Of a DNA stretch of 64,000 nt, positions 2,987 through 52,044 are shown piece by piece. The notes beneath the pieces are model-generated. The model had not been told where the DNA came from, did no database searches, and saw only the letters and a program-made list of their open reading frames with translations. Position 1 is the first letter of the stretch. The number at the start of each line of letters is the position of its first letter. The stretch is from NCBI GenBank assembly GCA_964512835.1, contig CAZELA010000001.1:233372-297371 (forward strand), given 5' to 3'. A program made the position numbers and the translations under genes. This DNA is from an uncultured Candidatus Saccharibacteria bacterium (GTDB taxonomy: Bacteria > Patescibacteriota > Minisyncoccia > Phycocordibacterales > UBA2100).

Positions 2987-3622
2987 ATGGACGAAGCACA
3001 TGTACTCGATGTTTTGCAGAAAGTAGGGGCATTCCGTGCGGGTCATTTTGTGTTTGTGTCGGGCCTTCATGCCGACACGTACGTGAATAAGAATGCGATG
3101 TATCCGTACACTCGCGAGATGTCGACGTTGTGTCGCGAGATTGCACAGCGGTTCAAAGGGCGAGGGGTTGAAGCGGTCGTCGGACCGGCGACCGGCGGCA
3201 TCATCTTGTCGCAATGGGTCGCGTATCATTTATCTGAGCTTGAAGGCCGCGAAGTGTATAGCGTGTACTCGGATAAGGATGGCGACGGGTTCGTGATCAA
3301 ACGAGGGTATAACGAATTGATAAAGGGTAAACAGGTGATTGTAGTCGAAGACCTTGTCACTACCGGAGGTTCGCTTCGGAAAGTTATCGAGGCGGCTCGC
3401 CAGGAAGGTGCGCATGTGCTTGCGGCTGTCGCTATTTGCAACCGTGGGAACGTTACGCGCGAGATGGCCGGAAACCCGCCCGAATTCATGTCTATGCTGA
3501 CTGTCGAGCTTGATCAGTGGCCGGAAGCGGAGTGTGACCTCTGCGCGCGGGGTATTCCGATCAATACCGATGTCGGTCATGGTAAGGACTTTTTACAAAA
3601 GCGAAGCACAATACTTTCATGA
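2987..3622 (+). CDS. pyrE: orotate phosphoribosyltransferase
   Basis: PRPP-binding motif VIVVEDLVTTGGS; follows pyrF. Confidence 0.85.
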   Translation: MDEAHVLDVLQKVGAFRAGHFVFVSGLHADTYVNKNAMYPYTREMSTLCREIAQRFKGRGVEAVVGPATGGIILSQWVAYHLSELEGREVYSVYSDKDGDGFVIKRGYNELIKGKQVIVVEDLVTTGGSLRKVIEAARQEGAHVLAAVAICNRGNVTREMAGNPPEFMSMLTVELDQWPEAECDLCARGIPINTDVGHGKDFLQKRSTILS

Positions 3623-3981
3623 AAAAGATCATTATTGCAGTTGTGGCGCTCATGCTTATCGGCGGAGCCGCGGTTTATATATACAAAGCACGGGAAGCCG
3701 CGGAATACGCTGCAATGCCCGCGCCGGCTGTCACGCAGTTGACCGCACCGGCCACCATGGCAGATGTTGCCATGCATGCGGGGGCCGAGAGTTGCTGGAG
3801 TGCCATAGACGGCAATGTATACGATCTGACAGGATGGGTTGCTGAGCATCCGGGTGGTGAGCGTGCAATCCTCTCCTTGTGCGGCAAGGATGGCACCGCT
3901 GCATTTCATGGTCAGCATCGAGACAATAAGGTCCAGGCCGATGTATTGGCCGAGTTCAAGATCGGCACGGTAGCGCAATAA
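3619..3981 (+). CDS. membrane-anchored cytochrome b5-like heme-binding domain protein
   Basis: N-terminal TM helix, then CWSAIDGNVYDLTGWVAEHPGG...AFHGQHRD (cyt b5 HPGG and second His); ATGA overlap with pyrE stop. Confidence 0.7.
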   Translation: MKKIIIAVVALMLIGGAAVYIYKAREAAEYAAMPAPAVTQLTAPATMADVAMHAGAESCWSAIDGNVYDLTGWVAEHPGGERAILSLCGKDGTAAFHGQHRDNKVQADVLAEFKIGTVAQ

Positions 3982-4067
3982 ACGCGCGATTGTGCTCATA
4001 CAACCTCCATAACGTGGAGTGATATACTGAGACAACTAGCAGTCTTAGGAATATAAAGCCTTTATCT

Positions 4068-4556
4068 ATGCGAAATCTTTTGTGGATCATTCTTGCGGTA
4101 ATCATCATCGGCGGCGGTTATTGGTGGTGGTCTATGTCTGCCCAGCCTACAGCGATGGTCAATGAGAACGCCGCATCTCCTGCACCGGTCACGGCCACAA
4201 CAACCCCGGAATCAGCCGTTACTACACCGGCTGCGACACCGTCAACGGTCACCGTTACCTACGACGGTAAAGCGTATTCGCCGGTTGATGTGACGATCAA
4301 GGCGGGTGATACGGTCGTGTTCAAAAACACCTCCGGCAAGAACATGTGGGTGGCGTCTGACGAGCATCCGACGCACACTGAGTTCGACGGTACATCGCGT
4401 GCAACGCACTGCGCAGCAGGATATGCCGGTGAAAAGCCGTTTGATCAGTGCAAGCCGGAAGCCGCAGACTACTCGTTTACGTTTGCTAAGGCGGGAACGA
4501 TTGAGTTCCACGACCACATCAACCCGAGCGCGCACGGTACGGTTACTATTCAGTAA
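4068..4556 (+). CDS. membrane-anchored cupredoxin-like domain protein
   Basis: N-terminal TM, low-complexity linker, then KAGDTVVFKNTSG...SDEHPTH...AKAGTIEFHDHINPSAHGTV resembling the cupredoxin-like/EfeO-type fold. Confidence 0.55.
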   Translation: MRNLLWIILAVIIIGGGYWWWSMSAQPTAMVNENAASPAPVTATTTPESAVTTPAATPSTVTVTYDGKAYSPVDVTIKAGDTVVFKNTSGKNMWVASDEHPTHTEFDGTSRATHCAAGYAGEKPFDQCKPEAADYSFTFAKAGTIEFHDHINPSAHGTVTIQ

Positions 4557-5982: not shown

Positions 5983-7236
5983 CTATTTTCGTCGTAGGAA
6001 GGACGGGAGACCGCCCCAGCTGTCGTCTTCGTCGGTCGGTCCGGTTTCTACCGATGTGTCCTGAATGCGGACCTCGGGCTTCTTTTCTTCGCGAACCTGC
6101 GGCTTGTCCGTCGCGAGCGCGTCGATGATCTTTTTCGGTTCCGGACGCGGGATTGTCTGAATCGGCGGCACGTCCGTGTCTTTTGCTCGGGACGGTATAA
6201 CGCGCGTGGCGAATGTAGCGCCGCCAGCAGGACGGGCCGGCTGTTCCGGGAAGCCCGTTGCAATAACAGTGACGCGTACCTGGCCCTTCTTGAGCGACTC
6301 GTCGGTGATCGCGCCGAAGATGACCTTCGCCTCCGGGTCGATTGCCTCGGTGATGACGTTTGCGGCATCCTGAACTTCGAGCATGCCGAGGTCGTCGCCG
6401 CCCGCGATCGAGAAGAGAACTCCCTTTGCCCCGGTGATAGAGACTTCGAGGAGCGGGGAGTTGATCGCGGCTCGAGCTGCGTTTTCTGCTCGCTTTTCGC
6501 CGATCGCTGTACCGATACCCATGAGTGCGGAACCGGCATTCGCCATGATCGCGCGTACGTCGGCGAAGTCGACGTTGATGATGCCTGTCTGTGTGATGAG
6601 GTCGGAGATGCCTTCGACTGCCTGCTTCAGTATATCGTCGCACATTGCGAACGCGTTCTTGATGCCGGTTTCTCGAGAGACAATCGCAAGGAGTTTGTCG
6701 TTCGGAATGATGATGGTGGCATCGACTGCTTTGCGGAGCTCAGCGAGCCCTGCTTCTGCGAGTCGGATGCGCTGCTGGCCCTCGAATGCAAACGGTCGTG
6801 TAACAACACCGATCGTCAGAGCACCGAGTTCACGTGCGATTTTTGCGACAACGGGCGCCGCGCCGGTGCCGGTGCCGCCACCCATTCCGCAGGTTACGAA
6901 TACCATGTCGGAACCCTTAATCGCATCCTGAATTTCTTCACGCGTTTCTTCCGCCGCCTGTTTACCCATGTCCGGATTCATGCCGGTACCGAGTCCGCGG
7001 GTGAGTGTTTTACCGATGTGAATCTTGTGCTTTGCCTTTGATTTGTGGAGGTCCTGTGCGTCGGTGTTTACCGCAATGAAATCAACGCCCTGGACGCCTG
7101 TTGCGACCATGTGGTTGACCGTATTTCCACCCGATCCGCCGACACCGATAACTCGTATTCGCGCGAAAGATTCAACTTCGGGCTTCACTTGCTTTGACAT
7201 AGTGGGCACATCATAGCATTTCTGCGTAGAGGGCAA
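5983..7236 (-). CDS. ftsZ: cell division GTPase FtsZ
   Basis: Tubulin signature [18 protein letters not shown], long charged C-terminal tail. Confidence 0.95.
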
Positions 7237-23202: not shown

Positions 23203-23362
23203 GAAACGGGGACTCGATCACGAATAAAATCCACGCCGTCGCGATCAAGGGGGACTCGGCCAAGCGCTCGCTTCGTCGCCGTCGCGACGAAGCTCCGTTC
23301 GGCCCTGCTCGCGCATCCCCGTCTACTGACGGGGCCCCAGCGCTCGCTTTCTCGTCCCCGCC

Positions 23363-23410
23363 TTTGCTCTACCAAATACAAAAGATCGAGGCATGCCTCG
23401 ATCTTTTGTA
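23363..23410. terminator. long perfect palindrome / bidirectional terminator
   Basis: CAAATACAAAAGATCGAGGCATGCCTCGATCTTTTGTATTTG (19-bp stem). Confidence 0.7.
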
Positions 23411-23416
23411 TTTGTG

Positions 23417-23498
23417 TGGGCAAGGGGGGACTCGAACCCCCAATCCTTACGGAACCAGTTCCTAAGACTGGCGCGTATACCAATTCCGCCACTTGCCC
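23417..23498 (-). tRNA. tRNA-Leu (anticodon TAG), type II, CCA not encoded
   Basis: Manual fold: acceptor GGGCAAG/CTTGCCC, anticodon loop CTTAGGA, long variable arm, T-arm GGTTCGAGTCC. Confidence 0.8.
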
Positions 23499-27263: not shown

Positions 27264-27580
27264 GGCAATGAGAATATCTTGAATAGATTCCCGTGAGGGA
27301 AATCAATACAGGACTGGAGTTTAGGTCGATCCCTGCTTCTCTGGATCAGCTCTGGTTGATACGTAAAAGATACCATGTGAAAAATGATGTGTCAATGAAT
27401 CGTGATTTGTTTGAGGCTGATTCCGAGATGTGGTGCCGGCAAGTATCGAGATGCGACATCGACTACGCTCCATGAGTGGTCAGGGATATTTTCCTCGCCG
27501 CCGCTCGGAAAATTCCACGATTCTGCCTTGCCTGTCGCAAAAGCTTTTGCAACATGGCTCCGGCTCGCACAAAGCGAAAA
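27264..27580 (-). promoter_or_regulatory. probable long cspA 5' leader and promoter region (no convincing ORF)
   Basis: About 300 nt without coding signal between the upstream terminator and the cspA ATG; csp genes classically have long structured leaders. Confidence 0.35.
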
Positions 27581-27584
27581 AACC

Positions 27585-27612
27585 TGGCGCAGGCCAGGTT
27601 TGTTTCGTCTTT
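27585..27612 (-). terminator. terminator of the low-GC hypothetical gene
   Basis: AACCTGGCGCAGGCCAGGTT hairpin with T-run on the minus strand. Confidence 0.6.
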
Positions 27613-27643
27613 GTGCGCCCAATGGGACGTTATCGGAACGGAA

Positions 27644-28168
27644 CTATTGGCAGGAGTCACGCAGATCGCCAGTTAGCCATGTTGCCGATTTTTTTGCCTC
27701 ATCAATATTTCTCAGCTGTAAATTATTTGGAACACCTGCTTGATGGCGCTTTTCTTCGAACTGAGTTTCAGTAAATGCCTGCATCGTTTGACCCGAGTGC
27801 GGGTCAATAACCCACCAGTAGGTTATCGATTCATCGGGGATGCAATTTGAACAATCCTCCATGCGTGGGTGCGGTTTCTCCAGCGGGTGTGTCTTCGCAA
27901 GAACATAGTCGTCATCCCACGCAATTTCAAATATGGATTCGGGAATGAACCCCCCAGCATCACCAATATCCGTGCAATTTACATATACAGCATATGCACT
28001 GCTCCTGTTCAGTTTGCAATGTGAATTTAACTGATATTCATAGTCTGCTAAACCGGGTCCAAAACCACATTTAAGAATAGTGCTGTAAAAAGAGAAACAA
28101 ATAAAAATCCACACGATGCTGGCGCCAATCCAAAAATACTTCGGATTCCGAACGATGGCTTTCAACAT
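27644..28168 (-). CDS. hypothetical membrane-anchored protein, low GC
   Basis: 174 aa, N-terminal TM, Cys-containing; about 45% GC versus 55-58% in flanks. Confidence 0.45.
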   Translation of the reverse strand: MLKAIVRNPKYFWIGASIVWIFICFSFYSTILKCGFGPGLADYEYQLNSHCKLNRSSAYAVYVNCTDIGDAGGFIPESIFEIAWDDDYVLAKTHPLEKPHPRMEDCSNCIPDESITYWWVIDPHSGQTMQAFTETQFEEKRHQAGVPNNLQLRNIDEAKKSATWLTGDLRDSCQ

Positions 28169-28196
28169 AGGAAAACTATGTCACGAAACTGAAAAC

Positions 28197-28390
28197 TTGT
28201 CTGTGCGCCCACTAGGATCCTCCCAAGCGCTCGTATTTTGCCGTCGCAAAATACTCCGCTCGGGCCTGGTTTTGCTATCCCATCTGCTGATGGGCCCCAC
28301 GCAAAACCTTTCGAATCCTGACGCTCGCTTCGCTAGCTGTGGGCGCACTTGTAAACAGAAAACGGCCCTAAGGCCGTTTTCTGATTCAAG
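28197..28390 (-). repeat. tRNA-Lys trailer element
   Basis: Terminator AAAACGGCCCTAAGGCCGTTTTC (28359-28382), inverted acceptor copy (28338-28349), hairpin GTATTTTGC-GACG-GCAAAATAC (28233-28254), direct copy GTGCGCCCAC.AGGAT (28203-28217). Confidence 0.6.
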
Positions 28391-28463
28391 TGCGCCCACC
28401 AGGATTCGAACCTGGGACCGTTCGCTTAAGAGGCGACTGCTCTACCAGCTGAGCTATGAGCGC
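28391..28463 (-). tRNA. tRNA-Lys (anticodon CTT), CCA not encoded
   Basis: Manual fold: acceptor GCGCTCA/TGGGCGC, anticodon loop CTCTTAA, T-arm CCAGGTTCGAATCCTGG. Confidence 0.8.
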
Positions 28464-32004: not shown

Positions 32005-32009
32005 GTGAC

Positions 32010-32190
32010 GCCACGAGGGGTGTGCACCCGCCCATAACGCCCTTTGTTTAACTGGGCAGACCGTCGCGTGCGACGAGCTGGAATTACGAACACTACAATT
32101 GAGGCCACAGCGGGAGTTGCACCCGCCCATAACGGTTTTGCAGACCGTCGCGTTGCTACTTCGCCATATGGCCAGCGAAAGCTAACGCCG
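32010..32190 (+). repeat. two diverged tandem copies of an about 90-bp unit upstream of tRNA-Leu(TAA)
   Basis: GCACCCGCCCATAACG at 32027 and 32121; GCAGACCGTCGCGT at 32064 and 32143. Confidence 0.6.
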
Positions 32191-40953: not shown

Positions 40954-41036
40954 GCGTCGATGGCGGAGTGGTCAATCGCACTTGGCTGTAAACCAAGCGA
41001 CTTCGGTCTGCGCAGGTTCGAATCCTGCTCGGCGCA
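40954..41036 (+). tRNA. tRNA-Tyr (anticodon GTA), type II, CCA not encoded
   Basis: Manual fold: acceptor GCGTCGA/TCGGCGC, anticodon loop CTGTAAA, long variable arm, T-arm GCAGGTTCGAATCCTGC. Confidence 0.8.
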
Positions 41037-41230
41037 CAAACGCAAAAAGAACCCAATTGGGTTCTTTTTGCGTTTGTGCAGCACGAGAGCAGAGTGCTGA
41101 GCACTCTGCGGCAGGATTCGAACGCCGGAGCGATGTGAGCCCAGTAGGGCGAACCGCGAGGCGGTGCCCAGACAAACTTTTGCGACGGCAAAAGTTTAGT
41201 CGAGGGAGAATCCTGCTCGGCGCACAAAGT
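41037..41230 (+). repeat. tRNA-Tyr trailer element
   Basis: Terminator (41045-41070), palindrome GCAGAGTGCTGAGCACTCTGC, inverted T-arm-like CAGGATTCGAAC, hairpin AAACTTTTGC-GACG-GCAAAAGTTT (41174-41197), direct copy GAATCCTGCTCGGCGCACAAA (41208-41228 versus 41020-41040). Confidence 0.65.
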
Positions 41231-41276
41231 GCAAAAAGCCCCTAACCGGGGCTTTTTGCGTGGTACGATTTACCGC

Positions 41277-41684
41277 ATGATATTGAGGCAGGTGAAGGTA
41301 CTTGCGACCATTTCTGTCTTCGTGATGATGCTGCTCCCGCTGTACGCGACGGCAGCCGGCATTCCCACGCAGATCGTTCCGTCACAATACAACTGTGATC
41401 AGGAGGGAGGATGCGATTCTATCTGTGCGATCGTGGTACTGGCCCAGAACGTGCTCAATTTTGGCATCTTTATGGCGGTGGTCATTTCCGCTTTTTTGTT
41501 CGCCTACGCAGGCTGGAACATGCTCACATCGGGAGGTAATGCCGAAGTGTATGCAAAGGGGAAACGGGTATTCAGTAATGTTCTGATCGGACTCATCATT
41601 ATCCTGGCGGGCTGGATTGTGATCGATACCCTGATGAAAACCTTTACCGGCACGGGCCTGACTGGAGCGGGGATCTGCGTGTAG
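41277..41684 (+). CDS. TrbC/VirB2-like small membrane protein, paralog F
   Basis: Signal peptide ...LYATAAG; two helices; resembles paralogs A-E at 21.3-23.2 kb. Confidence 0.5.
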   Translation: MILRQVKVLATISVFVMMLLPLYATAAGIPTQIVPSQYNCDQEGGCDSICAIVVLAQNVLNFGIFMAVVISAFLFAYAGWNMLTSGGNAEVYAKGKRVFSNVLIGLIIILAGWIVIDTLMKTFTGTGLTGAGICV

Positions 41685-41690
41685 TGGAAA

Positions 41691-42251
41691 TTGACACTAC
41701 AGCAGGGAATTGTATTGTTTCCCCGGTTCATCACGGAGGACTTGTTCGTGCAAACACTCACTCACTTGGCGATTGGTGCCGCTATAGGCGCTGTTGCATT
41801 CCCACATCAACCGATCCTGCAGCTCTCGTGTGTGGCAGCATCAGTCGGTCCGGATGTAGTCATGATGCCGCTATTTGCGCTCGACAAACTACGGGGACGG
41901 CAGCCGCTCGTGCGACAGGGGCCGATCGTACTCACACTCAAGGAGTTGAGTCATTCGATTTTCCTCTGCGGCGCGTGTGGCTTGATCGGAATGCTGCTCG
42001 TGCTGCCGGTTGTTACTGCGTTCGCGCTCGGCTGGTTGGTGCACATTGTGATCGATATTCTCACGCACGCTGACCCAAAGTTTCAGGCTATCGGGGATCC
42101 GCACTACATCTGGCCCGTGGGCAGTCTGCGGAGCTGGGGGGTCTGGGAATATCGGATCGAGACCGGTCAGCTCTGGCCACTGAAGCCGCTTGAGCTCCAG
42201 GTACTCATTGCCTCGTCGGCCATGGCCGTCGTGGGGTGGGTTGTCCGGTAA
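41691..42251 (+). CDS. YdjM/DUF457-like membrane-bound metal-dependent hydrolase
   Basis: LTHLAIGAAIGAV N-terminus and HIVIDILTH motif. Confidence 0.5.
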   Translation: MTLQQGIVLFPRFITEDLFVQTLTHLAIGAAIGAVAFPHQPILQLSCVAASVGPDVVMMPLFALDKLRGRQPLVRQGPIVLTLKELSHSIFLCGACGLIGMLLVLPVVTAFALGWLVHIVIDILTHADPKFQAIGDPHYIWPVGSLRSWGVWEYRIETGQLWPLKPLELQVLIASSAMAVVGWVVR

Positions 42252-42579: not shown

Positions 42580-42650
42580 GGGCGATTAGTTTAGTGGTAG
42601 AACAGCGGTCTCCAAAACCGCTAGTGGGGGTTCGATTCCCTCATCGCCCG
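42580..42650 (+). tRNA. tRNA-Trp (anticodon CCA)
   Basis: Manual fold: acceptor GGGCGAT/ATCGCCC, anticodon loop CTCCAAA, T-arm GGGGGTTCGATTCCC. Confidence 0.8.
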
Positions 42651-42652
42651 CA

Positions 42653-42820
42653 ATGATCAAAAAAGACGCGCAAGCGTCTTTTTTGCCAAACATTGCGAGG
42701 CGATGAGGGAATCGAAAGGCGGAGGCGGGGCACCCGCGTACCCGCGGGTCGCCGAGCCAGGGCAGTGACCACTTGCCCGAAGGGCTTAGTGAGTTACGCC
42801 GCTTCCCTCATCGCCCGCAA
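42653..42820 (+). repeat. tRNA-Trp trailer element
   Basis: Terminator AAAAAAGACGCGCAAGCGTCTTTTTT, inverted copy GGCGATGAGGGAATCGAA (42699-42716), direct copy TTCCCTCATCGCCCGCAA (42803-42820); the two copies can pair as a 13-bp stem. Confidence 0.6.
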
Positions 42821-46248: not shown

Positions 46249-46330
46249 GCCGGAATGGCGGAATTGGTATACGCACACGACTCAAAATCGTGCGCCTCAC
46301 GGCTTGTGGGTTCGAGTCCCACTTCCGGCA
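46249..46330 (+). tRNA. tRNA-Leu (anticodon CAA), type II, CCA not encoded
   Basis: Manual fold: acceptor GCCGGAA/TTCCGGC, anticodon loop CTCAAAA, long variable arm, T-arm GGGTTCGAGTCCC. Confidence 0.8.
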
Positions 46331-46507
46331 CACAAAATCAAAAAGCAGGGCATGTCCCTGCTTTTTGATTTTGTGGCACGGAAGTGGGACTCGAAAGCGA
46401 GTCCTGGGCCCCCGCGAGCACGTGGGGATGGACGAGCAGGGCAGAGAAACTTTTTAACGCGACGGCGTTAAAAAGTGTTCTTGGCCGAGTCCCACTTCCG
46501 GCTTTTT
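46331..46507 (+). repeat. tRNA-Leu(CAA) trailer element
   Basis: Terminator palindrome (46335-46371), inverted copy GCACGGAAGTGGGACTCGAA (46376-46395), hairpin ACTTTTTAACGC-GACG-GCGTTAAAAAGT (46449-46476), direct copy GAGTCCCACTTCCGGC plus TTTTT (46487-46507). Confidence 0.65.
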
Positions 46508-49622: not shown

Positions 49623-49733
49623 TTACTTCTTTTTCTTCGCCGTCTTCTTGTCGGATGATGCCCCCTCCAGCTTATGCGGGTTGTGCATGGGACATGTTTT
49701 TTGACTACAGCGCTCCGGAATCGTTTTTGGTCA
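49623..49733 (-). pseudogene. displaced duplicate of the topA 3'-terminal coding segment
   Basis: Minus-strand translation between stops: PKTIPERCSQKTCPMHNPHKLEGASSDKKTAKKKK versus the topA C-terminus ...TKTIPERCSQKTCPMHNPHKLEGVAKKKK; 29-bp identical core CCCTCCAGCTTATGCGGGTTGTGCATGGG. Confidence 0.7.
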
Positions 49734-49829
49734 CACGTTCGTGTCGTCCCGTCGGACGCCACGACGTGCGACCCCGGCTCAGGATCGCACGCTGCTGCGT
49801 GCGATATCCTTCCGCCTCACAAAAACGAA

Positions 49830-49851
49830 ACACGAGGCGCAGGCCTCGTGT
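49830..49851 (-). terminator. topA terminator hairpin abutting the stop codon
   Basis: ACACGAGGCCTGCGCCTCGTGT then TTTCGTTTTTG on the minus strand. Confidence 0.6.
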
Positions 49852-52044
49852 TTACTTCTTCTTTTTGGCGACACCCTCCAGCTTATGCGGGTTGTGCATG
49901 GGGCATGTCTTTTGGCTGCATCGTTCCGGGATCGTCTTTGTGCCTTCCATCATGAGCGAGTCACATAGCTTGCAGCGAGCTCCCGTGGGTCGGGCTTTGA
50001 TTGCATTCTTACACTTAGGGTAGTTGGAGCACGCGTAGAATAAACCGAATCGTCCGCGTCGTTCCACCATCTCTCCGTCGCTGCAGATATTGCACTTCAC
50101 GCCGGTCTTTGCCTTCGCTTCCTGTTCCGGGTCTTGCTTCACGAATTTGCACTTAGGGAAGTTCGAGCAGGCGATGAACGGTCCGAATCGGCCTTCGCGC
50201 AGGATCAGTTTGCCGCCCTTCGTTTCGCCGCAATCGGGACAGACTTCGCCGATTTCCTTGGGTGGCGGGATCTCACTGCCGTCCTCGCGTCGCGCACCAA
50301 GACACTCGGGGAATTTCTTGCACGACATAAACCGGCCCGCTTTGGAGAGTTTGTATTCCATCGGACCCTTACAGATCGGACAGGGGAATTCCTCGGGGGC
50401 ATCACCCATGCCGGTGATCTTTGCGATCTTCTCCTTGCCTTTGACCGCTTTCTTGAACGGTGTGTAGAAATCTTTGAGAGTTTTCTCGTATTCTCGAGTG
50501 CCGTCAGAGATCTCATCGAGTTCGTTCTCCATCTCCGCGGTGAACGTGTCCGAAATATACTCACCGAAATTATTCTCAATGAACGTGGACACAACGTCGC
50601 CGGTTGCCGTCGGGATCATGGTGCGACCCTGCTTTTCCACATAGCCGCGCGTCTCGAGTGTGCGGATGATCGACGCATAGGTCGACGGTCGACCGATGCC
50701 GCGACTTTCGAGCTCCTTCACAAGACCTGCCTCTGAATAGCGTCCCGGCGGCTGCGTTTCCTTGCCTTCGGTGTGCGCTTCTACGAGATCGAGCGGATCG
50801 TGCGCTGCAACCTTCGGCAGCTCCACGTCTTCGCCGCGGGCATCCGGATCTGCTGCGAGCCAGCCGTCGAATGTAACGCGGGAGCCGTTGGCGGAAAAAT
50901 CGGGGATGGTTGCACCGCTGACGTTTGCGATGATCTTCGTTCGAAGGGTCTTCGCGTCGGCCATTTGACTCGAGAGTGCTCGGGCACGGATGAGTGTATA
51001 GAGCTTCTTCTGCTCTTCGTTGTTGCCGCATGTTGCTTTGTGCGGATTGGTCGGACGTACAGCTTCGTGTGCCTCCTGCGCATTCTTGCTTTTTGATTTG
51101 TATTCACGTGCCTCTACATACGCTGCGCCGAATTCGCTTGTAGCAACTGCAACGAGCGCCGCCTGCGCTTCCTTGGCGAGGTTCGGACTATCGGTTCGCA
51201 TATAGGTGATGTGACCGGCTTCGTAGAGTTTCTGCGCGATACCCATCGTGCGGGACGGAGAGAACCCGAGCCGGGTCGACGCGGCCTGTTGCAGTGTGGA
51301 TGTTGTGAACGGTGCACGCGGCGAGCGTTTTGCTTCGGACTCATCAACGGAAATGACTTTCCAATCTTTTGTGGTCGCCGCCTTGTAGATGCGCTCGGCC
51401 TCTGCCTCGGTCTTCGGCTCCTCGACGCAGGTAACCGTGAATTGCTCTTTTTTCTTTGTTTTGACATCGGCGCTCACCACCCAAAACTTCTCGGGGACGA
51501 ATGCACGGATCTCGCGCTCGCGCTCCATAATGATGCGGAGTGCCGGCGATTGCACGCGGCCGGCCGACAAGCCATACCGCACCTTTTTCCATATGAGGCC
51601 GGAGAGGTCGTAGCCGAAGAGGCGGTCGAGGACGCGACGGGCTTCCTGGGCGGATACGAGTTGCTCATCGATCTTGCGGGGGTGGGCAATCGCTTCCTGT
51701 ACGGCATTCTCCGTAATCTCGTGAAATACGATGCGTTTCGGCTTTTTGAGTCCGATCGTAACGGCCAAATGGTGCGCGATCGCTTCGCCCTCGCGGTCTG
51801 GGTCTGTTGCAAGAATAACCTCAGTCGAGCGACCGGCAATGTCCTTCAGTTCATCGATGATTTTCTGTTTTTCTTTCACGATCTGATAGCGCGGCACAAA
51901 ACCGCCCTCGATATCGACGGCGTCTTTATTGCTTTTCGGCAGATCGCGTATGTGGCCCACCGATGCACGGACCGTGTATCCGTGACCCAGATACTTTTCG
52001 ATCGTTTTTGCTTTGGCGGGGGATTCAACGATGACTAATTTCAT
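49852..52044 (-). CDS. topA: DNA topoisomerase I
   Basis: Toprim plus topo IA core, C-terminal C4 zinc ribbons, Lys-rich tail; 730 aa. Confidence 0.95.
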   Translation of the reverse strand: MKLVIVESPAKAKTIEKYLGHGYTVRASVGHIRDLPKSNKDAVDIEGGFVPRYQIVKEKQKIIDELKDIAGRSTEVILATDPDREGEAIAHHLAVTIGLKKPKRIVFHEITENAVQEAIAHPRKIDEQLVSAQEARRVLDRLFGYDLSGLIWKKVRYGLSAGRVQSPALRIIMEREREIRAFVPEKFWVVSADVKTKKKEQFTVTCVEEPKTEAEAERIYKAATTKDWKVISVDESEAKRSPRAPFTTSTLQQAASTRLGFSPSRTMGIAQKLYEAGHITYMRTDSPNLAKEAQAALVAVATSEFGAAYVEAREYKSKSKNAQEAHEAVRPTNPHKATCGNNEEQKKLYTLIRARALSSQMADAKTLRTKIIANVSGATIPDFSANGSRVTFDGWLAADPDARGEDVELPKVAAHDPLDLVEAHTEGKETQPPGRYSEAGLVKELESRGIGRPSTYASIIRTLETRGYVEKQGRTMIPTATGDVVSTFIENNFGEYISDTFTAEMENELDEISDGTREYEKTLKDFYTPFKKAVKGKEKIAKITGMGDAPEEFPCPICKGPMEYKLSKAGRFMSCKKFPECLGARREDGSEIPPPKEIGEVCPDCGETKGGKLILREGRFGPFIACSNFPKCKFVKQDPEQEAKAKTGVKCNICSDGEMVERRGRFGLFYACSNYPKCKNAIKARPTGARCKLCDSLMMEGTKTIPERCSQKTCPMHNPHKLEGVAKKKK

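Follow-up and report, generated by a model that had tools for sequence, protein, structure and literature searches.

The stretch of DNA analysed in this study (64,000 nucleotides (nt), in the following called the window) was taken from contig CAZELA010000001.1 of the GenBank assembly GCA_964512835.1 (positions 233,372 to 297,371, forward strand), which derives from an uncultured Candidatus Saccharibacteria bacterium. It is chromosomal DNA encoding ClpB, GyrA, TopA, MiaA, ParB, FtsZ and DprA, and related loci were found in Paceibacterota, Kaiserbacteria and Adlerbacteria. The subject of this work is the trailer of the tRNA-Tyr gene, in which a duplicated tRNA 3' end encloses a structured segment. 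This trailer is a member of an apparently undescribed family of structured non-coding modules of ~110-190 nt in Paceibacterota (candidate phyla radiation (CPR)/Patescibacteria).

The host gene, tRNA-Tyr(GTA), was identified by ARAGORN at 40954-41037 (+). It is complete, and CCA is not encoded. The Rfam model RF00005 places it at 40954-41036 with 61.8 bits. As described in a previous, sequence-only reading of this DNA, the tRNA 3' end together with the 4 nt behind it forms a 21-mer (GAATCCTGCTCGGCGCACAAA), which is found at 41020-41040 (+, copy 1, X1-Y1) and recurs exactly at 41208-41228 (+, copy 2, X2-Y2). The repeat contains nt 57-60 of the T-loop, the 3' strands of T-stem and acceptor stem, the discriminator and the 4 additional nt. 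These two sites are the only ones in the window, even if up to 2 mismatches are allowed, and 100 dinucleotide-preserving shuffles gave 0 matches.

Each copy is followed by a hairpin. Hairpin T1 (41034-41079, +) is a perfect palindrome of 23+23 nt consisting of A-tract, GC stem and T-tract, while hairpin T2 (41231-41259, +) has arms of 12+12 nt (41231-41242/41248-41259) followed by a T-run/GCG. Both are built as GCAAAAAG-stem-loop-CTTTTTGCG, but the stems differ (76% identity over 54 nt). The sequence-only reading had seen these hairpins correctly, including their unlike stems, and had named them terminators. This name is based on their looks: by eye both resemble bidirectional terminators, but a consensus terminator scan called neither of them, because the T-run pairs with the upstream A-run in the extended palindrome. 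Judged from appearance, both may act as terminators, T1 possibly as a leaky one.

Behind T1, the segment Y' and a conserved AG linker (41080-41088, +) were delimited by an alignment of 8 orthologous Tyr trailers (alignment A1) and its consensus fold. Y' is a degenerate sequence similar to the 5' strand of the acceptor stem, and because of this degeneracy the acceptor-strand part of copy 2 is unpaired at the Tyr locus. In the orthologues L016, L049 and L080, Y' perfectly complements the acceptor 3' strand. The following hairpin P0 (41089-41109, +; arms 41089-41098/41100-41109), flanked by AG and CG, corresponds to the 10-bp palindrome reported before. X' (41111-41123, +) is the inverted T-arm of that report. 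It is the exact antisense of tRNA positions 53-65, comprising T-loop and T-stem 3' strand, and perfectly complements 41016-41028. Its part 41111-41119 is the 5' strand of helix P1, which is formed with the start of copy 2 (41208-41216, the P1 3' strand) and closes a junction to which the GAA(C) of X' belongs. The P2 domain (41123-41163, +) consists of a GCC/GGC helix, a conserved GGAGCG...CGCGAGGC internal loop with tandem G.A pairs, which by eye is kink-turn-like, and a hairpin with an AGUA loop. The P3 domain (41167-41205, +) is a long arm (CCCAGAC...GUCGAGGG) with the tip AAACUUUUGC-GACG-GCAAAAGUUU, the GACG-loop hairpin recognised earlier (arms 41174-41183 and 41188-41197, loop 41184-41187).

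The palindrome, the inverted T-arm, the GACG hairpin and copy 2 are parts of one conserved, covarying fold. For 41078-41228 alone, the minimum free energy (MFE) fold has -76.8 kcal/mol with z = -7.1 in comparison to shuffles, and the predicted parts of the Tyr module are a weak acceptor-like stem, P0, P1 and a three-way junction with P2 and P3. Compensatory changes were observed in 29 of 50 predicted pairs of alignment A1. In an alignment of 47 modules to the model (alignment A2), 92% of the cells are paired in contrast to 61% in shuffles, the former value being somewhat inflated by the fitting to the model, and both partners change in each of the 49 modelled pairs. A covariation score of 0.605 was obtained, versus 0.166 for shuffles (0/500 reach 0.605) and ≤0.08 with slid partners. 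P0 shows compensatory changes at all of its 9 modelled pairs (95.5% of cells paired), and the P2 helices (5-7) are 91-98% paired, all of them covarying. The P3 helices (9-10 of the modelled fold) are supported by the consensus fold, the covariation in alignment A2 and the MFE fold. G.U and U.G pairs outnumber A.C and C.A pairs by 62 to 27 and in the core alone by 42 to 14. Thus, both marks of a generic structured RNA, compensatory changes beyond shuffle controls and a wobble asymmetry between the strands, are observed.

The sequence-only reading had suggested a search for a decayed second tRNA-Tyr gene made up of the second copy and terminator. As an explanation of the trailer such a tandem duplicate is refuted in the form stated and scarcely credible. 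In its acceptor and T-stem sequences the module indeed equals the tRNA, and some orthologues have a 7-bp acceptor-like stem which together with P0 gives a tRNA-like outline. However, relaxed Rfam searches (E≤10) and ARAGORN gave no tRNA match in 41038-41260 (+), so that no recognisable tRNA pseudogene appears at relaxed thresholds, and D- and anticodon arms are missing there. The apparent T-loop side is reverse-complementary to the T-loop instead of being its copy, the fold of the interior is conserved and not that of a tRNA, and topA as well as tRNAs of 19 specificities are followed by the same design. The frame may nevertheless have originated from an ancient tRNA duplicate.

A by-product of replication was considered as well. 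Fold-back or template switching at a palindromic terminator would produce an inverted copy and a tandem re-copy, both functionless. tRNA end, hairpin and antisense arm form long near-perfect palindromes (arms of ~40 nt at the tRNA-Leu-CAA locus), and the order sense-antisense-sense resembles what we would expect of template-switch inverted triplications. The foreign conserved core and P0 with 49 of 49 pairs covarying, the recurrence of the same cores at many loci and the conservation of the module above its flanks are left unexplained by such a process. It is largely refuted by core conservation and covariation and appears very improbable.

Modules occur on both DNA strands and are always co-oriented with the upstream gene; GC skew has one sign throughout the window. 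There is no promoter space between the first hairpin and the module, and many loci have no terminator-like hairpin at all, which makes co-transcription with the tRNA the natural inference. Accordingly, the module would be transcribed together with its tRNA, either by read-through of the first hairpin or directly if there is none, and would act as RNA.

The layout of the modules is uniform. An optional terminator-like hairpin is followed by the antisense of the T-arm of the host tRNA, to which in some cases that of its acceptor strand is added, and P0 may be present between the two. Then follow the conserved three-way-junction core with P2 and P3 and the sense tRNA 3' end, which reaches from T-loop position 56/57 to 1-4 nt beyond the discriminator. 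The modules are located directly behind tRNA genes and occasionally behind a tmRNA-like gene or topA. In the window, 7 copies were identified, making up ~2% of this piece of a streamlined CPR genome; 5 of the 7 tRNAs carry one, 2 further copies are present, and tRNA-Leu-TAA and tRNA-Cys are without module. The seven copies score between 26 and 152 bits against one model and represent different subtypes. At each of these tRNAs the P1 arms are specific to the host tRNA.

The resemblance to the tRNA-Leu-CAA trailer, which had already been noted, extends to the loci of tRNA-Trp, tRNA-Lys and tRNA-Leu-TAG, all of which share the architecture. The following bit scores refer to covariance model R1. 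Behind tRNA-Trp (42580-42651) lies a module at 42682-42817 (+, 32.8 bits) with arms matching tRNA-Trp, and behind tRNA-Leu-CAA (46249-46331) one at 46340-46507 (+, 38.4 bits) with arms matching tRNA-Leu. The module of tRNA-Lys-CTT (28390-28463) is found at 28202-28349 (-, 57 bits), and a distal module with very short arms at 27462-27611 (-, 37.8 bits) belongs to the same array. This array (27462-28463, -) is ordered as module, DUF3997 open reading frame (ORF) of 174 amino acids (28168-27644), Lys-like 3'-end remnant (CCCATTGGGCGCACAAAG) with a palindromic hairpin, and second module. A decayed module is located behind tRNA-Leu-TAG (23416-23498) at 23238-23395 (-, 35.5 bits).

For comparison with other genomes, the window and 80 related loci anchored at MiaA were used. 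In this set, 37 of 225 tRNAs have their own 13-nt 3' end repeated within 400 nt downstream, mostly exactly, while upstream this is the case for 0 of 223. A covariance model built from the 8 orthologous Tyr trailers gave 55 matches in 1.3 Mb; 38 of 50 examined matches lie directly behind a tRNA on the same strand. The direct repeats measure 14-25 nt at most modules, and the full range of the duplication is ~8 to ~100 nt. With an 18-mer of the core, 120 metagenome loci were retrieved, which yielded ~100 more model matches; ~15 of the 18-mer matches have no model match and are due to chance. In total, ~150 model copies are present in Paceibacterota genomes and metagenomes. The metagenome sites with the A1 motif are located behind tRNAs of 19 amino-acid specificities and one tmRNA-like 3' end. 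In L109 (~180-484), a module with matching arms follows an apparent 3' tRNA-like domain of tmRNA, at which ARAGORN calls no tRNA.

Beside this core, at least two other core classes show the same logic of tRNA-matched arms. Class B (L025, L027, L040, L042, L055, L064 and L066) is characterized by a YUGUAAG loop in P3 and a GUACUG junction, and class C (L021 and L057) by conserved GAGGAA and GUGAGA motifs. A pattern scan of IMG/VR gave 6 loci, with real modules in L083 only. In the window, Rfam 15 detected only the 7 tRNAs at the gathering threshold, and a relaxed search (E≤10) of 22800-47000 gave chance-level matches over the modules, all far below the gathering scores. No description of such an element was found in the literature searched.

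The modules turn over between related genomes, with gains, losses, stacking and exchange. In L003, no module is present at the tRNA-Tyr site that precedes the pilin-like gene; in the window this site carries subtype A1 and in L001 subtype A3, and L002 has subtype A1 at its tRNA-Tyr site with an unrelated gene downstream. The core of the A3 module in L001 is by eye ~90% similar to the tRNA-Leu-CAA core of L003, but it is combined with Tyr-specific arms. The tRNA-Trp site is empty in L002. At the tRNA-Leu-CAA site, subtype A3 in the window and subtype A2 in L002 are surrounded by the same conserved long-hairpin frame. Stacked modules with decaying distal copies were observed in the tRNA-Lys array of the window and in L055, L080, L083, L097 and L136. 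Two tRNA-Leu genes of L025 have ~90% identical trailers, antisense arms and cores, and each sense copy is that of its own tRNA. In L153, a unit behind tRNA-Asn with trailer, hairpin, P0, antisense arm, core and copy is present twice (3098-3356 and 6130-6341). The second unit, near-identical and with Asn arms, follows another hairpin at a non-tRNA site at a distance of 3 kb. The unit ends at the tRNA discriminator and at the T-run after the copy. In a survey for strain-level polymorphism, the Tyr module was present in 4 of 4 contigs of the same species.

The module behind topA (49719-49853, -; 65.7 bits with covariance model R1) extends these observations to a protein-coding gene. Such modules were found in the window and in the distant L074, and 25 other topA 3' ends are empty. 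In the window (49623-49938, -), two in-frame copies of the topA C-terminal part, with starts at 49938 and 49727, are placed around the module. The duplicated part, in frame in both genomes, comprises 22 codons for the window, the last ones before the tails diverge, and 19 codons for L074. Of the codons that differ between copies, 16 are synonymous and 1 is non-synonymous; the window copies show synonymous differences only. A bias of 16 to 1 has a binomial probability of ~5e-8, as calculated by hand under the assumption that 30% of random changes are silent. The tails of the window copies differ (GVAKKKK and GASSDKKTAKKKK, each directly followed by the stop codon), and each copy has its own hairpin. 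In L003, the sequence of the empty site is orthologous to the second topA copy with its terminator. Therefore, the inserted piece consists of the new C-terminus, hairpin, antisense arm and core.

The explanation we tentatively favour, with chances slightly below even, is that the module is a transcription-coupled, non-autonomous insertion similar to an intron or intervening sequence (IVS). It would duplicate the target's 3' end, with arms matched to that target closing it. Such a hitchhiker would enter at the T-loop or 3' end of a highly conserved gene, and the direct repeat would be the footprint of insertion or recombination. The repeat would also permit precise loss and could permit re-acquisition by homologous recombination. 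For the host gene the module is presumably harmless, because a replacement 3' end and a terminator precede it.

Several observations weigh against this explanation. There is no simple model for how both P1 arms match the local tRNA while near-identical cores are found at different tRNAs. Among ~40 ORFs of the window, which are housekeeping genes, Pfam detected no recombinase, reverse transcriptase or transposase, and the sole recombinase near a module in ~2 Mb of related loci, that of L107, is the remnant of a truncated serine recombinase. The copies of any one genome have diverged from each other (~65% identity by eye) and show no transposition burst, unlike an active MITE (miniature inverted-repeat transposable element). 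The E-values of the model are rough, and the fitting of alignment A2 to the model must be kept in mind here as well. In addition, conservation of the Tyr module above its flanks points to purifying selection on resident copies and possibly to a host function. Between the window and L002 the module is 92-97% identical, whereas T1 has 72% identity, with compensating changes, T2 51%, and the downstream genes are unrelated.

This last observation leads to the main rival, a serious though less probable one, which is compatible with the insertion described above. Here, the module is a host-serving cis RNA with a regulatory or assisting part in how the preceding tRNA folds, matures at its 3' end or is turned over. 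In the form of a switch, X' would either lock the tRNA 3' half in a long hairpin or sit in P1 when a ligand or protein stabilises the core, and the second 3' copy would serve as anti-antisense strand or as alternative 3' half. The core is kept in sequence and structure to the extent just given while the flanking hairpins drift, and the arms must complement the local tRNA. Several core classes with one arm logic recall riboswitch classes, and the module is always on the sense strand. Nearest-neighbour energies are in line with such a role: a swapped fold, in which the tRNA 5' half pairs with copy 2 and copy 1 is locked in a long hairpin, lies 9-15 kcal/mol below the tRNA plus module, so that the competing pairings are real in silico. 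In the swapped fold, the module would be inserted between positions 56 and 57 of the T-loop. Even at loci with a decayed antisense partner, the copy is still exact in its acceptor part, which the swapped conformer could explain. On the other hand, the module is dispensable for individual tRNAs, since sites in close relatives are empty and 2 of the 7 window tRNAs have none. Core subtypes are swapped at the same site, stacked copies decay, orphan units lie away from tRNAs, and the topA module comes with a ~100-nt gene duplication, needless for a tRNA regulator. Like the P1 switches of riboswitches, the module combines a conserved junction with a P1 5' strand that has a competing partner, and like a T-box it is dedicated to a specific tRNA. 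In contrast to both, it is located downstream of a tRNA and not in an mRNA leader and is dispensable per site; in contrast to the T-box, it pairs with T-arm and acceptor 3' strand instead of anticodon and NCCA. As a regulator of the downstream gene the module was rejected, for the neighbours are unrelated (membrane protein, MAPEG, a DUF3997 protein and ParB-adjacent genes).

Direct repeats of 17-25 nt over a tRNA 3' end are the classical signature of integrases. The copies could thus be the attachment (att) sites attL and attR of integrase-borne islands, the island itself being deleted down to a ~150 bp remnant similar to a cis-mobilizable element (CIME). We regard this as distinctly improbable. 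The repeats, which extend from the T-loop to the tRNA 3' end as in the att duplications of islands and CIMEs, fit the signature, and the gene is restored by the copy on the element side, which has a terminator of its own behind it. In the case of topA, the insert provides a C-terminus as replacement, and the empty site of L003 is orthologous to the displaced copy together with its terminator. The serine-recombinase ORF of L107, located between tRNA-Gly and a module with copy, fits as well. However, the window contains no integrase, ~2 Mb of related loci contain this one remnant, and only ~150-190 nt without cargo lie between the repeats. Repeat partners at kb scale are absent from the window and the 80 genome loci, and among the metagenome loci only L107 and the L153 duplicate were found. 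Hence, of the criteria for islands and CIMEs, tRNA 3'-end repeats are present, and integrase and cargo are lacking. Furthermore, scars would not share a covarying, sequence-conserved RNA-type junction across many loci and tRNA species, would not carry a tRNA-specific antisense arm and would not always sit on the transcribed strand.

In L107 (268-1860), the truncated large-serine-recombinase ORF (Zn_ribbon_recom) and a metalloprotease-like ORF are placed between tRNA-Gly-TCC and a module with 3'-end copy, which lies 1.5 kb downstream of the tRNA. It is the only case with cargo that was seen. L176, a further island candidate, was rejected since it contains a second tRNA-Gly gene instead.

A more specific version of a mobile element appears rather unlikely, though less so than the att scars. 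According to it, the module is a self-targeting mobile RNA, in which the antisense arm is an internal guide that would pair with the T-loop and T-stem of tRNA, tmRNA or look-alikes. Homing would occur by reverse splicing or retro-homing or by an RNA-guided recombinase, and the result would be a T-loop intervening sequence with a spare 3' half. Like the intervening sequences of rRNA and the T-loop introns of archaeal tRNAs, the module is a structured insertion that occurs sporadically in a stable RNA's loop, some relatives having it and others not. Unlike these, it has no bulge-helix-bulge by eye and no need of excision, because a full spare 3' half and a terminator come with it. X' complements nt upstream (GTTC) and downstream (GAATCC...) of the insertion, as the internal guide sequence (P1/P10) of group I introns does, and with these introns the module shares conserved host genes, sense orientation and empty sites in relatives. 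A group I intron itself was excluded: there is no RF00028 match (E≤10), the core is two-armed, measures 70-90 nt and has no P3-P9, and instead of a conserved terminal G the nt before copy 2 is A or C.

Other known classes were rejected as well. A MITE does not fit, as the arms are those of the local tRNA and differ at every locus and the duplication of ~8 to ~100 nt is not fixed. Repetitive extragenic palindromic doublets forming hairpins (REPINs) and MITEs are likewise short, non-coding, hairpin-forming elements behind genes without own enzyme, but they differ from the module in its target-derived arms, variable duplication and diverged copies, and no REP-associated tyrosine transposase (RAYT) or other transposase was found. 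The attC sites of integrons and attP(+) of CTX-phi, a mimic of dif, are similar to the module in their imperfect hairpin with structure conserved over sequence, and as in CTX-phi the module stem reproduces the target duplex. In contrast to them, the context is neither that of an integron nor that of Xer, each of ~20 targets has its own version of the stem, a three-way-junction core is present and the strand follows host transcription, not replication. A folded single-stranded DNA recombination site was accordingly dismissed, with the strand following the host gene and no integron integrase in the Pfam-scanned window ORFs. Small self-cleaving ribozymes were dismissed as by eye no hammerhead core (CUGANGA/GAAA) and no twister, pistol, hatchet or hepatitis delta virus-like consensus is visible, and Rfam gave no match. 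Against a retron, a diversity-generating retroelement or a guide RNA of TnpB or IS110 speak the lack of reverse transcriptase, TnpB and DEDD recombinase in the scanned ORFs and the fact that the putative guide is base-paired.

If the family is real, it represents a widespread class of structured RNAs or elements which has gone unnoticed so far and is linked to those genes that are the most conserved in the cell. Either of the two leading explanations would be new: a selfish element made harmless in essential genes by duplication of the target 3' end and by target-derived arms on a ribozyme-sized fold, or a further level in the biology of tRNAs, in organisms about whose RNA processing very little is known. 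The arms, being matched to the target, hint at programmable recognition. A mobile RNA of the kind outlined above would be a naturally programmable insertion system without cis-encoded protein, with arms apparently rewritable for ~20 targets. The repeats may also mislead the annotation of tRNAs and att sites and may break short-read assemblies. In L001 (~3960-4085), an N-run starts 5 nt after tRNA-Trp (4090-4161, -), at the position where relatives carry a module.

Some minor observations concern the surroundings of the modules. In L087 (1-60), a contig of the same species, copy 1 is a variant (GACTCC..GCATAAA) and copy 2 is unchanged; the difference is located at the contig end and is probably assembly noise. 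Close behind the Tyr module follows the gene of a membrane protein with 135 amino acids (41277-41684, +), the product called there in public assemblies. The sequence-only reading had placed it 45 bp behind the repeat; the start is most likely the ATG at 41277, 49 nt past copy 2. The ORF scanned for it (41229-41684) has no Pfam match. Together with a neighbouring gene of 129 amino acids, it forms a pair of small membrane-protein genes directly behind the module (41277-42073, +), which correspond to the pilin-like paralogues of that reading. A partial, degenerate copy of tRNA-Cys (32101-32173) is present shortly downstream of this gene at 32005-32090 (-), in which ACGCGACGGTCTGC and GTTATGGGCGGGTGCA recur. 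It does not belong to the modules and has the appearance of a tandem tRNA in decay or of a tRNA-like remnant.

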